Source of the DNA: a virus
Lineage: Duplodnaviria; Heunggongvirae; Uroviricota; Caudoviricetes
Strand: one strand, 5' to 3'
Length of the DNA stretch: 25,811 bases
Virus record (IMG/VR): IMGVR_UViG_2778261502_000009
Position numbers and translations under genes: made by a program. The notes beneath the pieces were generated by a model, which searched no databases, was not told the DNA's origin, and saw only the letters and a program-made list of their open reading frames with translations. Shown piece after piece: positions 10,919-24,172 of the stretch; within the stretch, counting starts at the first letter, position 1, and every line of letters starts with the position of its first letter.

Positions 10919-11200
10919 TGAGATTGTGGTGCTTTTTGTGGGAGTCATCCACTTACGCACTTTGTTTTGCCATGCCAGCAGTTAGCTTCTGCTGTAAAAC
11001 TATTCATGCAGCAAACCTGCACTTCACCACAATGGTTAGCATACTTTTCCTGATTAAGATTTTGCCAAATATGCTGGCCATTGTTTCATGTATTGGACCT
11101 CCTTAATTTTTATTAAAGAAATCCAATATTCACTACTCTGTCCGTATCTCTACTCAGGCATCAGCCTTCTTCGTTATCGTATACAGACGAGCGATGAATT

Positions 11201-11416
11201 TTAATCAGTAATGATGACATTTGCTGCTGCAGGACCTTTAGCACCACTCTCTATAGAGAAGGTAACCTTTTGACCTTCAAATAAGGTTCGATAATTATCA
11301 TTCTGAATCGCAGAAAAATGCACAAACACATCTTTACTACCATCAACAGGAGAAATAAAGCCGAAACCTTTATCAGCGTTAAACCATTTTACTAAACCAG
11401 TCATTTTATTTGACAT
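11201..11416 (-). CDS. cspB: Cold-shock protein (CspA family, CspB-like)
   Basis: 71 aa, [71 protein letters not shown]. Confidence 0.85.
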
Positions 11417-11716
11417 TCTACATTCCTTAACTTGAGCCTTTCGGCATAAATGGTTTGCATAACAGAAACGACTTCGTACTTAATTGGAGAGACTCAAAGA
11501 AGGAATAAGTGAATAACACCTGAAATGAGAACTGCTTTAGTAAACTACTTCGTATATCGTCTGTTCTTCAAACCGACGCAATCATTAACGCATAGTTGAA
11601 CATATGAAGCAATGTTTATTTTAGACATCCAGCCATCTTCAACCCCATCAAAAAACTATAGCTTTCTTCAGGAACGTGTGTATAGTGCGCCAAGTTATCA
11701 GTATTAAGGAATTTTT

Positions 11717-14980: not shown

Positions 14981-15136
14981 TTACTCCTCAGGTTCGTAAG
15001 CTGTGAAGACAGCGACCTCCGTCTGGCCGGTTCGGATTCGTACCTCGCAGAGGTCTTTCCTCGTTACCAGTGCCGTCACTATGACGGTTAAACAGATGAC
15101 GATCAGGGCGATTAACATCGCCTTTTGCTGCTTCAT
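14981..15136 (-). CDS. hokD: Hok-family type I toxin (HokD/RelF-like)
   Basis: MKQQKAMLIALIVICLTVIVTALVTRKDLCEVRIRTGQTEVAVFTAYEPEE, 51 aa, from ATG 15136. The track ORF extends in frame upstream to 15193 (MLDTCRLASYVPKGKEKQS-). Confidence 0.85.
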   Translation of the reverse strand: MKQQKAMLIALIVICLTVIVTALVTRKDLCEVRIRTGQTEVAVFTAYEPEE

Positions 15137-15408
15137 AGACTGCTTCTCCTTGCCTTTCGGCACGTAAGAGGCTAACCTACATGTGTCTAGCATGAAATTG
15201 GCCTCAGATTAATGTTAAGCGTCTTGCAGGACGCGTAATGTTAACTGGGGCTTTTCTCTATCTGCCTTTGGTGTTCATGCCCGAGGCAGATAGCCTCAAG
15301 CACCCGCAGCCATTCTACTTAACTACCTTTACCTCGCCAATATGAAATCAGTCAGAAAGACGATCCATAAGAACAATAGCAAGATTTCTTAATGGAGATG
15401 GATGTAAG

Positions 15409-19435: not shown

Positions 19436-19843
19436 ATGGATACAAGAACCCTAGGCCAGCGAGTTCTGGCGCGACGAAAAGAATTACGCTTAACACAACG
19501 AGAAGCTGCGCGCCTCGCTGGGGTTGCTCACGTCACAATTTCACAATGGGAAAGAGACGAAACCCAGCCAGTCGGAAAACGATTGTTTGCTTTAGCGGAT
19601 GCTCTGAAGTGCTCACCTACATGGCTAATGTTTGGTGACGAAGACAAGGCACCAGTGCCGGCACAAGAACTTCATGTGGAAACAGAGCTAACTCCCAACC
19701 ACAAAGAATTGATCGAATTATTCGATGCTCTTCCATCTTCCGAGCAGGAAGCCTTGCTGTCTGAAATGCGCGCAAGAGTAGAAAACTTCAACAAACTCTT
19801 CGAAGAAATGCTTAAAGCGCGTAAAAATAAATCAATAAAATAA
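19436..19843 (+). CDS. dicA: cI-like HTH repressor DicA
   Basis: 135 aa. XRE-type HTH (LTQREAARLAGVAHVTISQWERDETQP); C-terminal ...EMRARVENFNKLFEEMLKARK resembles K-12 DicA. Confidence 0.8.
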   Translation: MDTRTLGQRVLARRKELRLTQREAARLAGVAHVTISQWERDETQPVGKRLFALADALKCSPTWLMFGDEDKAPVPAQELHVETELTPNHKELIELFDALPSSEQEALLSEMRARVENFNKLFEEMLKARKNKSIK

Positions 19844-19879
19844 CATTCTTTTCAAGTGATTAGTTGCGCCCACTCTTTT

Positions 19880-19897
19880 TGTTAGACTAATCTAACA
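19880..19897. promoter_or_regulatory. Second operator palindrome TGTTAG-N6-CTAACA upstream of ydfA (dicB operon promoter region)
   Basis: tgttagactaatctaaca read directly; a degenerate third copy tgttaggttattctaa lies at 19916..19931. Confidence 0.65.
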
Positions 19898-20011
19898 AAA
19901 AACACTTGCCTCTTATGTTAGGTTATTCTAAATTACTTTCCATCAAGACACCGCACGGTGTTCTCAGCAAACAGTTCCGCTACCCCGGCGTTAAGGGGAA
20001 ATGAGGTCAGC

Positions 20012-20167
20012 ATGGATACTATCGATCTTGGCAACAGCGAATCTCTGGTATGTGGCGTGTTCCCCAACCAGGACGGCACGTTCACCGCGATGACGTATAC
20101 CAAAAGCAAAACGTTTAAAACCGAAAATGGTGCCCGTCGCTGGCTGGAAAGAAACTCAGGTGAGTGA
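20012..20167 (+). CDS. ydfA: YdfA-like small protein
   Basis: MDTIDLGNSESLVCGVFPNQDGTFTAMTYTKSKTFKTENGARRWLERNSGE from ATG 20012 (GAGG 4-5 nt upstream); part of track ORF 19958..20167. Confidence 0.75.
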   Translation: MDTIDLGNSESLVCGVFPNQDGTFTAMTYTKSKTFKTENGARRWLERNSGE

Positions 20168-20168
20168 T

Positions 20169-20744
20169 ATGGATTTCGACACAATCATGGAAAAGGCTTA
20201 CGAAGAATACTTCGAAGGCCTTGCCGAAGGCGAAGAAGCTCTCAGCTTCAGTGAGTTTAAACAGGCACTCAGAATAAGAATGTGCTCTCACAATGACGCG
20301 GAGCACAAATATGAGAAGCAAACTCAGACCGCAGAAAATTTTGTTCTGGAACCCGGAGAAACGCTTTTCAAAATTCCCGTTACGTGCCCCATTTGCGGTT
20401 TTACATCAGAAGAACTTGACGACTCCTGTAACAATCAGGAAACAACCAAGTATGTCGAAGATGATACTGAGTGCGCACGAAGAACGATTATATCCACGAG
20501 TCCAAACTCCAGGATCAATAAATCTCACTTTGAGAGGGTGATTAATCCACTCCCCCAAACCAATAAAAAAGATGCCGGAGGACAAAAAACCCAATGGAAC
20601 AACGGGATATCTGTCAAAAAAAGACGTTCCATTAAAGACAAACAACGCAGCGCCAACAACTGTAAGCGCTTTATACCAGTAATCAATTTTCATGTTCTTA
20701 AGCGGATTTATTGGTGGTTGCGACATTGCTTAATGAATCCTTAA
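20169..20744 (+). CDS. Hypothetical protein (191 aa) in the ydfB/ydfC position
   Basis: ATG 20169 lies 1 nt after the ydfA stop. N-terminal MDFDTIMEKAYEEYFEGLAEGEE... resembles K-12 YdfB from memory, but the ORF continues for 191 aa and has one CPICG motif. Confidence 0.5.
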   Translation: MDFDTIMEKAYEEYFEGLAEGEEALSFSEFKQALRIRMCSHNDAEHKYEKQTQTAENFVLEPGETLFKIPVTCPICGFTSEELDDSCNNQETTKYVEDDTECARRTIISTSPNSRINKSHFERVINPLPQTNKKDAGGQKTQWNNGISVKKRRSIKDKQRSANNCKRFIPVINFHVLKRIYWWLRHCLMNP

Positions 20745-21003
20745 AACTGTGGTGATTTTAAGGATACCACCTCGCCTGACGTGGTTAAAAGCAGGCACAC
20801 AACACGAAAGCGCACGGCGAAGTTCGTCTCACTGTACGGTGTCGTTAAATTTAATTCGACCGTGCGCTTCCGGTTGTGGCAACCCGCAAAATGGCGCGGC
20901 GGTAAGTATGGCGGGGTTATTCCTTCCCCGTTGAGGACACCGAGTTGTCAGGTTGACCATACGCTTAAGTGACAACCCCGCTGCAACGCCCTCTGTTATC
21001 AAT

Positions 21004-21061
21004 TTTCTGGTGACGTTTGGCGGTATCAGTTTTACTCCGTGACTGCTCTGCCGCCGTTTTT
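21004..21061 (+). ncRNA. dicF: DicF small RNA (ftsZ-targeting), ending in an intrinsic terminator
   Basis: tttctggtgacgtttggcggtatcagttttactccgtgactgctctgccgccgttttt matches the DicF sequence as I remember it. GGCGG...CCGCC stem followed by a T-run. Located between the ydfB/C-like gene and dicB. Confidence 0.65.
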
Positions 21062-21230
21062 AAAGTGAATTTTGTGATGCGGTGAATGCGGCTAAGCGCA
21101 CGCGGAACAGTTAAAACCAAAAACAGTGTTATGGGTGGATTCTCTGTATCCGACGTTAATTGTTAACTGGTTAACGTCACCTGGAGGCACCAGGCACTGC
21201 ATCACAAAATTCATTGTTGAGGACGCGATA

Positions 21231-21419
21231 ATGAAAACGTTATTACCAAACGTTAATACGTCTGAAGGTTGTTTTGAAATTGGTGTCACTATCAGTAACC
21301 CTGTATTTACTGAAGATGCCATTAACAAGAGAAAACAAGAACGGGAGCTATTAAATAAAATATGCATTGTTTCAATGCTGGCTCGTTTACGTCTGATGCC
21401 AAAAGGATGTGCACAATGA
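21231..21419 (+). CDS. dicB: Cell-division inhibitor DicB
   Basis: MKTLLPNVNTSEGCFEIGVTISNPVFTEDAINKRKQERELLNKICIVSMLARLRLMPKGCAQ (62 aa). GAGGA lies 8 nt upstream of ATG 21231. Part of track ORF 21126..21419. Confidence 0.85.
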   Translation: MKTLLPNVNTSEGCFEIGVTISNPVFTEDAINKRKQERELLNKICIVSMLARLRLMPKGCAQ

Positions 21420-21607
21420 ATTCAGCATTTGCGCTTGTTCTGACAGTTTTTCTTGTTTCCGGAGTGCCAGTTGATATTGCAGTCAGTGTTCACAGGACAA
21501 TGCAGGAGTGTATGACTGCAGCAACCGAACAGAAAATTCCCGGTAACTGTTACCCGGTCGATAAAGTTATTCACCAGGATAATATCGAAATCCCGGCAGG
21601 TCTTTAA
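21416..21607 (+). CDS. ydfD: YdfD-like small membrane protein (reported lysis-inducing protein)
   Basis: MNSAFALVLTVFLVSGVPVDIAVSVHRTMQECMTAATEQKIPGNCYPVDKVIHQDNIEIPAGL. ATG 21416 overlaps the dicB stop (ATGA). Confidence 0.75.
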   Translation: MNSAFALVLTVFLVSGVPVDIAVSVHRTMQECMTAATEQKIPGNCYPVDKVIHQDNIEIPAGL

Positions 21608-21700
21608 AACAGTTCCGTAATAAATATCCGGTTTCATTCTTATATGCCAGCAATGGCAGGGATTTGTTCATCCTTAAATCTGTCATGAGGTTAAAACAAA

Positions 21701-24172
21701 ATGAGTAAAGTCTTTATTTGCGCCGCTATTCCTGACGAACTGGCAACAAGGGAAGAAGGCGCTGTGGCTGTAGCCACAGCCATTGAAGCTGGCGACGAAC
21801 GCCGTGCTCGAGCAAAATTTCACTGGCAATTCCTGGAACATTATCCGGCTGCTCAGGACTGCGCTTATAAATTTATTGTCTGCGAGGATAAACCTGGCAT
21901 ACCCCGCCCTGCCCTCGATTCATGGGATGCTGAATATATGCAGGAAAACCGCTGGGATGAGGAGTCTGCTTCTTTTGTCCCGGTTGAGACTGAATCCGAT
22001 CCGATGAACGTCACTTTTGACAAGCTGGCCCCTGAAGTACAGAACGCTGTCATGGTTAAGTTCGACACATGTGAAAACATCACCGTTGATATGGTGATTA
22101 GCGCACAGGAATTGTTGCAGGAAGACATGGCAACATTCGACGGACATATCGTTGAAGCGTTGATGAAAATGCCAGAAGTTAACGCCATGTATCCGGAGCT
22201 TAAGTTGCACGCCATTGGGTGGGTTAAGCATAAATGTATTCCTGGTGCTAAATGGCCCGAAATTCAGGCAGAGATGCGCATCTGGAAAAAACGTCGCGAA
22301 GGTGAACGCAAGGAAACCGGAAAATACACGTCTGTTGTTGATCTCGCCCGCGCCAGAGCCAATCAACAGTACACTGAAAATTCAACAGGAAAAATCAGCC
22401 CGGTCATTGCTGCCATTCATCGCGAATACAAGCAGACATGGAAAACACTGGATGACGAACTGGCCTACGCTCTCTGGCCTGGTGATGTGGATGCCGGAAA
22501 CATTGACGGCAGCATCCATCGCTGGGCAAAAAAAGAAGTTATCGACAACGACCGCGAAGACTGGAAGCGTATCTCGGCATCAATGCGCAAACAGCCTGAT
22601 GCCCTTCGCTACGACCGCCAAACTATTTTTGGCCTTGTCCGTGAGCGTCCGATCGACATTCACAAAGATCCCGTAGCACTGAACAAATATACCTGCGAAT
22701 ACCTGACGACAAAGGGCGTGTTTGAGAATGAAGAAACAGACCTGGGCACTGTTGATGTTCTCCAGTCATCAGAAACACAAACTGATGCAGTGGAAACTGA
22801 GGTATCTGATATCCCAAAAAATGAAACCGCGCCGGAAGCTGAACCATCTGTAGAGCGTGAGGGGCCGTTCTATTTCCTCTTCGCAGATAAGGACGGAGAA
22901 AAATACGGTCGCGCAAACAAACTTTCTGGTCTGGATAAGGCACTGGCTGCTGGCGCCACTGAAATCACAAAAGAAGAATATTTTGCCCGAAAAAATGGCA
23001 CATACACGGGCTTACCGCAAAATGTAGATACTGCTGAAGATTCAGAACAACCAGAGCCGATAAAAGTTACCGCTGACGAAGTAAACAAAATTATGCAGGC
23101 AGCCAATATCAGCCAGCCTGACGCCGATAAGTTGCTTGCTGCATCACGTGGTGAATTTGTTGAAGGGATTAGTGACCCGAATGATCCGAAATGGGTTAAG
23201 GGGATCCAGACCCGCGATTCTGTGAACCAGAACCAGCATGAATCGGAACGGAACTACCAAAAAGCGGAACAAAACAGTCCAAATGCGTTACAAAACGAGC
23301 CAGAAACGAAACAGCCTGAACCAGTGGCGCACCAGGAAGTGGAAAAAGCCTGCACCGCCTGCGGTCAGACCGGCGGCGGCAACTGCCCTGATTGTGGCGC
23401 GGTGATGGGCGACGCAACATACCAGGAAACATTCGATGAAGAGTATCAGGTTGAAGTTCAGGAAGATGATCCGGAGGAAATGGAAGGCGCTGAACATCCA
23501 CACAAGGAGAACACTGGCGGCAATCAGCATCACAATAGCGATAATGAAACTGGCGAGACGGCAGATCACCCAATTAAGGTGAACGGTCATCACGAAATCA
23601 CATCCACCAGCAGGACGTGTGACCATCTAATGATCGACCTTGAAACCATGGGAAAAAATCCTGATGCCCCGATCATCTCAATAGGTGCAATATTTTTCGA
23701 TCCGCAAACCGGAGATATGGGACCGGAATTTAGTAAGACTATCGATCTGGAAACTGCTGGCGGAGTCATTGATCGGGACACCATTAAATGGTGGCTTAAG
23801 CAATCACGCGAAGCGCAATCTGCCATTATGACCGATGAAATCCCGTTAGATGATGCACTGTTACAATTGCGGGAATTTATCGACGAAAACTCCGGTGAAT
23901 TTTTTGTTCAGGTTTGGGGAAATGGAGCCAACTTCGACAACACGATTTTGCGCCGTTCATACGAACGGCAGGGGATCCCCTGCCCGTGGCGTTACTACAA
24001 CGATCGCGATGTACGCACAATCGTTGAGCTGGGGAAAGCCATAGACTTCGATGCCAGAACGGCTATTCCATTCGAAGGTGAGCGCCATAATGCACTTGAT
24101 GACGCCCGTTACCAGGCAAAATACGTTTCAGTTATCTGGCAAAAACTGATCCCGAGTCAGGCTGATTCTTAA
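21701..24172 (+). CDS. Large acidic protein with a C-terminal DEDDh (DnaQ-like) 3'-5' exonuclease domain (YdfE-like position)
   Basis: 823 aa. Exo motifs [21 protein letters not shown] and [13 protein letters not shown] in the last ~190 aa. Upstream zinc ribbon [16 protein letters not shown]. The N-terminal ~600 aa have no recognisable family. Confidence 0.65.

Follow-up and report, generated by a model that had tools for sequence, protein, structure and literature searches.

The segment at 20745–21061 of the window (the whole 25,811-nucleotide stretch of viral DNA that was analysed) very probably, at roughly 0.85, comprises dicF of a Qin-type lambdoid prophage and the non-coding leader native to it (20745–21003), and its RNA would mature through two nucleases as in Escherichia coli K-12. 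The region is that of the well-known prophage small RNA DicF, an inhibitor of cell division, and is in this respect already known. As a DicF locus it is routine, DicF and its two-nuclease maturation having been described since 1990. The fresh point is that part of the leader is a conserved domain, backed by covariation and common to DicF and to other phage sRNA cassettes. All features below lie on the plus strand unless stated otherwise.

The DicF RNA and its prophage

Scanning the whole window against Rfam gave a match to DicF (RF00039) at 21005–21056 on the plus strand, covering the full model with all pairs standard (72.5 bits, E = 1.9e-14, against a gathering score of 48 bits). The covariance-model check proposed with the sequence-only reading was thus passed. 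The dicF gene of K-12 (b1574, 53 nt) corresponds to 21004–21056, the coordinates of the mature sRNA here, and 52 of the 53 bases are identical; the sole difference concerns the last, unpaired base (21056), which is G here and C in K-12. The sequence-only reading had placed DicF at 21004–21061 with a GC stem and a T-run at its end, and this was borne out: the intrinsic terminator (21019–21061) comprises an interrupted stem (21019–21055) followed by the U-run (TTTTT, 21057–21061), as seen from the structure line of the Rfam alignment and from the sequence. The break in the stem and the length of the loop explain why a simple terminator scan missed it.

The 3′ stem-loop and U-run, i.e., the Rho-independent terminator and Hfq-binding module, are present, and the 5′ single-stranded seed of the 53-nt RNA is the same as in K-12, where it pairs with ftsZ, manX, xylR, and pykA. 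From the identity of the seed with that of the studied K-12 RNA (PMC5069750), we infer that DicF of this prophage would repress ftsZ in an Hfq-dependent manner and inhibit division. When Rfam was searched at relaxed thresholds (E up to 10) over 20250–21300, DicF, a sub-threshold STnc100 match downstream of it, and noise were returned, and nothing else.

Judged by its sequence, the window is a Qin-type lambdoid prophage. Qin of K-12 aligns with it in blocks, one of which (20787–22467, 98% identity) holds the leader, dicF, dicB, ydfD, and the exonuclease gene; clear homology to K-12 begins near 20787 and is weak from about 20760. The dicB gene is at 21231–21419 (Pfam DicB, 1.9e-40) and a gene for a DicA-like HTH repressor at 19436–19843. 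Near-identical loci in other E. coli genomes adjoin rspB, the same insertion as that of K-12 Qin. A 1.1-kb query around dicF (20400–21500) was matched, in whole or in part, in 4735 of 5426 complete E. coli genomes, and the exact arrangement occurred in 790. In the RefSeq E. coli record checked (L001), dicF is unannotated at the locus. Elsewhere in the window, minus-strand RNAs were seen at 8289–8674, 11185–11577, and 15134–15305, namely two cspA-type thermoregulator leaders and a sok antitoxin; as in Qin, they mark copies of cold-shock genes and a hok/sok module.

The gene upstream of the leader is not ydfC. At 20169–20744 (plus strand) there is an open reading frame of 191 aa that is YdfB-like and matches phrog_35040 over its full length (1.8e-139); it has a YdfB-like N-terminus and a Cys-rich tail and stands in the place of the K-12 ydfC. 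RefSeq calls only a truncated ydfB pseudogene at these positions. The leader starts directly 3′ of the stop codon of this frame (20744) and, as 20745–21003, is the 3′ untranslated region of the preceding gene of the early left operon. A 106-aa frame on the minus strand (20406–20726) had no Pfam or PHROG match and was rejected as a real inserted gene, the plus-strand frame that overlaps it being the full-length phrog_35040 match; the operon is therefore probably uninterrupted.

The long hairpin and the two cleavage sites

In K-12, DicF is derived from a polycistronic dicBp transcript, from which RNase III produces a 190-nt species and RNase E the 53-nt DicF (PMC10448788; Faubladier 1990 as cited there); the pathway is also given in PMC9438474. 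The 5′ end of the 190-nt species depends on RNase III, no internal promoter was found, and both terminated and read-through transcripts are made (PMC10448788), some of the latter being converted to a 72-nt DicF via a second RNase III cut (PMC5069750).

Over the last 190 nt of the precursor, the window differs from K-12 at three positions only (20888, 20943, and 21056). The leader is homologous to the published K-12 substrate (Faubladier 1990; Ragunathan 2023), in agreement with the sequence-only reading, which had regarded the inverted repeats in the 260 nt upstream of DicF as consistent with its processing substrate. The K-12 190-mer starts with CTTCCGGTTGTGG, which corresponds to the window from 20867 onward, and a 190-nt stretch that ends at the 3′ terminus of DicF starts with CUUCCGGUUGUGG, again at 20867. 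This position falls within the 3′ arm of a long hairpin whose repeat the sequence-only reading had noticed. By arithmetic from the K-12 lengths, the putative RNase III site, that is the 5′ end of the 190-nt species, is thus set at 20866–20868 (about 20867, a few nt either way).

The long hairpin, the presumed RNase III substrate, spans 81 nt (20798–20878) and was recognized from folds, from an inverted repeat, and from covariation in homologues. Its 5′ arm reads CACAAC-A-CG-A-AAGCGCACGG (20798–20817), its 3′ arm CCGTGCGCTT-C-CG-GTTGTG (20860–20878), and the apex between them (20818–20859) is variable. The inverted repeat that had been noted from the letters exists, with AAGCGCACGG at 20808–20817 and its complement at 20860–20869 (two matches vs. 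0.06 expected by chance), although the positions first given, 20806–20815 and 20861–20870, were off by 1–2 nt; it extends to 13 nt and forms the middle of the hairpin. The 3′ arm is the same in K-12 and in the window, and the 5′ arm and apex differ with pairing kept.

Among homologues, 32 distinct arm pairs were compared. Across the 18 stem pairs, 97.2% of the cells were paired and 44 cells were changed on both sides (shuffle mean 11.9), a value reached in none of 500 shuffles. Whole sequence classes replace one another, AAGCGCACGG:CCGUGCGCUU in some and GAGAGCAUUG:CAGUGCUCUC in others. Folded on its own, the segment 20745–21061 (−110.5 kcal/mol, z −2.28, 2 of 100 shuffles as good), for which a folding check had been suggested with the sequence-only reading, is only moderately unusual; the case for structure rests on the comparison with homologues.

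The RNase E site lies in a linker (20988–21003), whose sequence is the same as in K-12. The cut would fall at 21003/21004, between ..AUCAA and UUUUCUGG; this A/U-rich site (AUCAA/UUUUC) sits in a small loop of the local fold, and cleavage is assigned by homology. The positions of both predicted cuts are transferred from K-12, with the 190-nt 5′ end at about 20867 in this prophage. As the 5′ arm and apex of the hairpin and the upstream gene differ from those of K-12, the efficiency of processing could differ as well.

A small hairpin precedes the long one in single-sequence folds (20766–20796), with GCCUG (20774–20778) paired to CAGGC (20792–20796) around an A-rich loop; ACCAC (20766–20770) with GUGGU (20781–20785) makes an alternative or pseudoknotted pairing. 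In the corresponding position, the same sequence is found in mEp460, phiES15, a Klebsiella phage, and Salmonella phage F1055, and the hairpin is kept with another sequence in K-12-type leaders (CCCUGA-AAAG-UCAGGG) and in locus L211 (GCUGG..CCAGC). At L211, a tRNA-model match (40 bits) lies directly upstream of the element. In a Shigella flexneri locus (L151, 1452–1672) and in phage pPE4 (L128), the long hairpin is deleted and the small hairpin is joined directly to the following domain; in pPE4, the downstream cassette is tandemly duplicated as well. Such deletion variants provide natural tests of the need for the hairpin. In a Salmonella, Erwinia, and Izhakiella class (L127, ~2380–2500; L165, L166, and L175), the long hairpin surrounds an additional branched insert (~50 nt) with the tRNA T-arm-like GGTTCAATTCC.

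A conserved core within the leader

Between the two cut sites, RNAalifold, covariation, and a covariance model delimited a multi-helix domain of about 125 nt (20866–20994), referred to as core-1 or simply the core. It is closed by helix P0, in which GTTGTGGC (20873–20880) pairs with GCTGCAAC (20980–20987), GUUGUGG with CYRCAAC in the alignment. Inside it are the short hairpin P1 (CCGCA, 20884–20888, with CGCGG, 20895–20899), a helix of three base pairs (GGT, 20901–20903, with ACC, 20939–20941), the variable hairpin P2 (20911–20931), and P3, a 9-bp stem with a conserved loop (GAGTTGTCA, 20942–20950, with TGACAACCC, 20970–20978).

The structure was derived by RNAalifold on 35 diverse copies. Non-DicF copies were brought into the covariation test because the DicF-linked leaders are too similar to one another, with 88% mean identity and no double changes. 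In the alignment of 35 copies, 96.7% of the cells were paired and 13 of 28 pairs showed compensatory changes; none of 500 shuffles reached any of the measures and slid controls gave at most five such pairs. Six compensating pairs fall in P3 (e.g., GUUGUCA/UGACAAC, GUUGCCA/UGGCAAC, GUAACCA/UGGUUAC, and GAUCACC/GGUGAUC), and P0 is backed by the compensating lineages L200 and L218. The covariance model of the core found exactly one match in the window, at 20866–20994 (138.7 bits). Folded as a single sequence, the 190-mer favours a different pairing, and its stability is unremarkable (z −1.71).

The sets of homologues were gathered by exact patterns lying either inside dicF or inside the core, and part of the apparent loop invariance therefore arises by construction. 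Nevertheless, neither motif varies in the sets collected with the other as the key, nor in the copies retrieved by BLAST. The core matched no Rfam family even at E up to 10, and no description of the shared core was encountered in Rfam or in the literature searched, which did not cover Faubladier & Bouché 1994 or the P1 genome paper. The idea of a tRNA-like element was dropped, as ARAGORN found none.

Core copies with other cassettes

A BLAST search of the leader against phage genomes revealed it to be modular. The stretch ~20873–20995 is found again, but with no DicF, in phage cdtI, Stx2c phages, Salmonella phage F1055, and a phage labelled Actinobacillus, and P1 and P7 share a shorter part (20893–20980). 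When viral and genome collections were scanned by pattern, 188 distinct core copies emerged. About ten different cassette types stand behind the core, with two further variants truncated or rearranged (14 clusters), and a hairpin followed by a T-run is found within 190 nt 3′ of the core in 180 of the 188 distinct copies. Most of the listed cassette terminator stems open with a G+C-rich arm of the GGCGG type, and a U-rich stretch lies ahead of it in the examples examined; the combination is suggestive of an Hfq-type terminator module.

In all 127 sampled DicF copies with enough upstream sequence, the core motif was present at a fixed distance (124 exact, three with one substitution). Twelve loci with other cassettes gave no DicF match at the Rfam cut-off and no family for the core. 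The core is carried by about 500 P1/P7-like phage-plasmids and, among species-representative genomes, occurs in the genera Escherichia, Shigella, Citrobacter, Trabulsiella, Erwinia, and Izhakiella. Contigs from metagenome bins labelled Collinsella, Veillonella, and Bacillota (L159, L155, and L152) hold E. coli-type or P1-type cores (94–148 bits) and are probably mis-binned enterobacterial or P1 DNA.

The spacer between dicF and dicB

Downstream of DicF, the dicF–dicB spacer is structured as well (21066–21213), with a long closing helix of at least 19 bp (21066–21084 with 21195–21213). The inverted repeat is 19 nt long and 95% complementary, and the fold of 21057–21236 has −66.1 kcal/mol (z −6.57). 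Its resemblance to STnc100 of Rfam is weak (33.5 bits, below the cut-off of 47). The calculated 3′ end of the 72-nt DicF (~21075) falls in the closing helix, and the spacer probably carries the RNase III site for this alternative end of the 72-nt species (PMC5069750). The spacer is homologous to a domain that replaces the core in mEp460 (L124, ~2578–2690) and phiES15 (L125, ~2617–2730). The cassette behind this domain in mEp460 is the one that phage cdtI carries; cores and cassettes are therefore shuffled independently.

The DicF seed GGTGACGTT (21009–21017) is perfectly complementary to AACGTCACC (21173–21181), some 50 nt 5′ of the start codon of dicB. The complementarity could reflect pairing in cis or an action of DicF on its own operon, and a 9-nt match in a 500-nt region could also be due to chance.

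Proposed maturation pathway

Transcription from the DicA-repressed promoter upstream of ydfA would run through the leader and stop, in part, at the DicF terminator (21057–21061). RNase III would then cut the long hairpin near 20867, leaving a 190-nt intermediate with a 5′ monophosphate, and RNase E would cut at 21003/21004, releasing the 53-nt Hfq-binding DicF, which would repress ftsZ and metabolic mRNAs by base pairing. These steps were shown for K-12 and are transferred to this prophage on account of the near-identity of the sequences.

The heptamer GUUGUGG (20873–20879) is at once the 3′ strand of the hairpin base and the 5′ strand of P0, with CACAAC (20798–20803) or CUGCAAC (20981–20987) as the partner. 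In lineages L200 and L218, the shared strand and both of its partners have changed together. The hairpin base and P0 may thus compete: the hairpin would form first, RNase III would cut it, and P0 could then close the core. Closure of P0 would leave a short single-stranded tail with a 5′ monophosphate beside the RNase E site just 3′ of P0, and such geometry would favour 5′-end-dependent cleavage by RNase E.

On this model, the core may be a reusable maturation platform to which phages attach different cassettes of seed plus terminator, DicF being one of them. A scaffold role alone leaves the near-invariant junction and loop sequences of the core unexplained. We put forward, tentatively and at somewhat less than even odds, that the ~125-nt core at 20866–20994 is an uncatalogued autonomous RNA domain, a common front end for interchangeable Hfq-type sRNA cassettes in temperate phages of enterobacteria (lambdoid phages and P1/P7) with DicF as one payload, and that its near-invariant junction and loops are recognized by a partner (RNase E/degradosome, RNA polymerase, or a phage or host protein) that controls sRNA release or read-through into the early genes.

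Alternative explanations

Translation of the leader is barely credible. It would make one or two small proteins the products of the segment, from the frames 20749–20934 and 20781–20972, and the RNA structure incidental. Both frames are open in the window, as listed, and the segment bears annotated hypothetical proteins in several phage records. In a set of 85 distinct homologous leaders, however, the first frame is intact in five and the second in 11; more than 70 have frameshifts or stops, most have no start codon, variability is flat over the codon positions with no third-position excess, indels of 1 and 4 nt occur inside the region, and the K-12 annotation has no gene over it. The frames were accordingly rejected as coding, and the sequence-only reading, which had regarded both as probably not coding, was right on this point. 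In the phage records (L126, 2545–3000; L127, 2284–2856; L128, 2500–2706; HannyBb H26), the genes for hypothetical proteins run across the core and cassette, mostly on the opposite strand, and are probably annotation artefacts. It is also very unlikely that a promoter inside the leader makes DicF a gene of its own, the upstream hairpins being unrelated leftovers. PMC10448788 mentions that a second promoter upstream of dicB had been reported earlier, but the same work found no internal promoter and a 190-nt 5′ end that depends on RNase III; our consensus scan of 19800–21500 gave no promoter-like site on the plus strand, and the hairpin and core are kept by compensatory change, as inert leftovers would not be.

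A role of the core mainly in cis deserves more weight, though we consider it unlikely. The core would be an elongation regulator, put-like or similar to an attenuator or riboswitch, that lets RNA polymerase pass the DicF terminator and go on into dicB, the exonuclease gene, xis, and int, with sRNA maturation secondary; such a role is compatible with DicF maturation by two nucleases. The position of the core fits it. An intrinsic terminator always stands immediately behind the core, with early genes of like orientation beyond it. In cdtI, F1055, and pPE4, the core occupies the gap that separates the repressor gene from the early genes next downstream, and no N-like gene is annotated there. In P1, the core is flanked upstream by the C1-controlled Pban promoter and downstream by a terminator, with the tRNA genes beyond it. 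A conserved junction with a variable terminator region resembles an aptamer with its expression platform, and the terminated and read-through transcripts of K-12 (PMC10448788) agree with such control. The core model, however, had no match in the HK022 early region that holds putL and putR (23000–32500, filters off, E up to 1), and its fold of three hairpins closed by a helix, ~125 nt long, differs from the two-stem put RNA of ~70 nt; its identification as a put RNA was rejected on these grounds. A nut site was discarded too, since no lambda-type boxA (YGCUCUUWA) was found on the plus strand of 20745–21240 with up to one mismatch; the 3′ arm of the long hairpin reads UGCUCUUU in some homologues and UGCGCUUCC in the window. 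The candidate antiterminator pairing of the core GGCGG (GGCGCGGCGG) with the 3′ arm of the terminator, predicted by RNAalifold and by the single-sequence fold, was abandoned because it is impossible with the P1-type terminator GCCCAUCUUCGGGUGGGC, yet the core is kept there. No ligand or protein partner of the core is known. We retain two-nuclease maturation of DicF from its native leader as the preferred reading.

Significance

The leader deserves mention in annotation: the Rfam model is confined to the 52-nt DicF, and hypothetical proteins are drawn across the RNA in several phage records. Should the core be a shared platform, it would offer a handle for new phage sRNAs, as one could find the core and read the cassette behind it, and it would account for the so-called dicF-like region of P1. 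It would also supply a tractable model for the coupling of RNase III and RNase E, or for terminator bypass in early operons where no N-like gene is annotated beside the element.

Comparison with known systems

The closest relative is the dicF locus of K-12 Qin (ydfABC-dicF-dicB-ydfD), which is ~98% identical to the window from 20787 to the exonuclease gene, dicF, dicB, and ydfD included. The two differ in that ydfC and the end of ydfB are replaced here by 20270–20786 (with the 191-aa YdfB-like frame of phrog_35040), in the sequence of the RNase III hairpin (5′ arm and apex), and in the small upstream hairpin, which is of another type. The present prophage is more complete than K-12 Qin, having an intact exonuclease of 823 aa, xis, and int.

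P1 has, downstream of Pban, a stretch annotated in its record as ‘dicF-like region’ (NC_005856, 68791–68892) that shares the core over 87 nt (78.7% identity, 89.5 bits with the core model), including the compensatory changes GUUGCCA/UGGCAAC in P3, and an intrinsic terminator follows the core there. Unlike the DicF loci, the P1-type copy L149 gives no DicF match at the Rfam cut-off, the genes downstream are tRNAs and ban, and there is no long upstream hairpin, the transcript starting only ~50 nt upstream. HK022 is an N-less lambdoid phage whose put RNAs promote read-through of terminators in cis, independently of protein factors. With these, the core has in common the position of a structured RNA early in a repressor-controlled early operon, ahead of terminators, in phages whose annotation shows no N-like gene in the interval from the repressor gene to the core (cdtI, F1055, and pPE4); it has no detectable similarity to them, and its architecture is another one.

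Among the Hfq-binding sRNAs that RNase E releases from 3′UTRs or from within operons, CpxQ, SroC, and SdhX are likewise terminator-proximal ends of mRNAs with a 5′ end made by RNase E (PMC9438474). The DicF-type loci go further than these: a hairpin for RNase III is added upstream, a conserved folded domain separates the two cleavage sites, and this domain is reused with different seeds.
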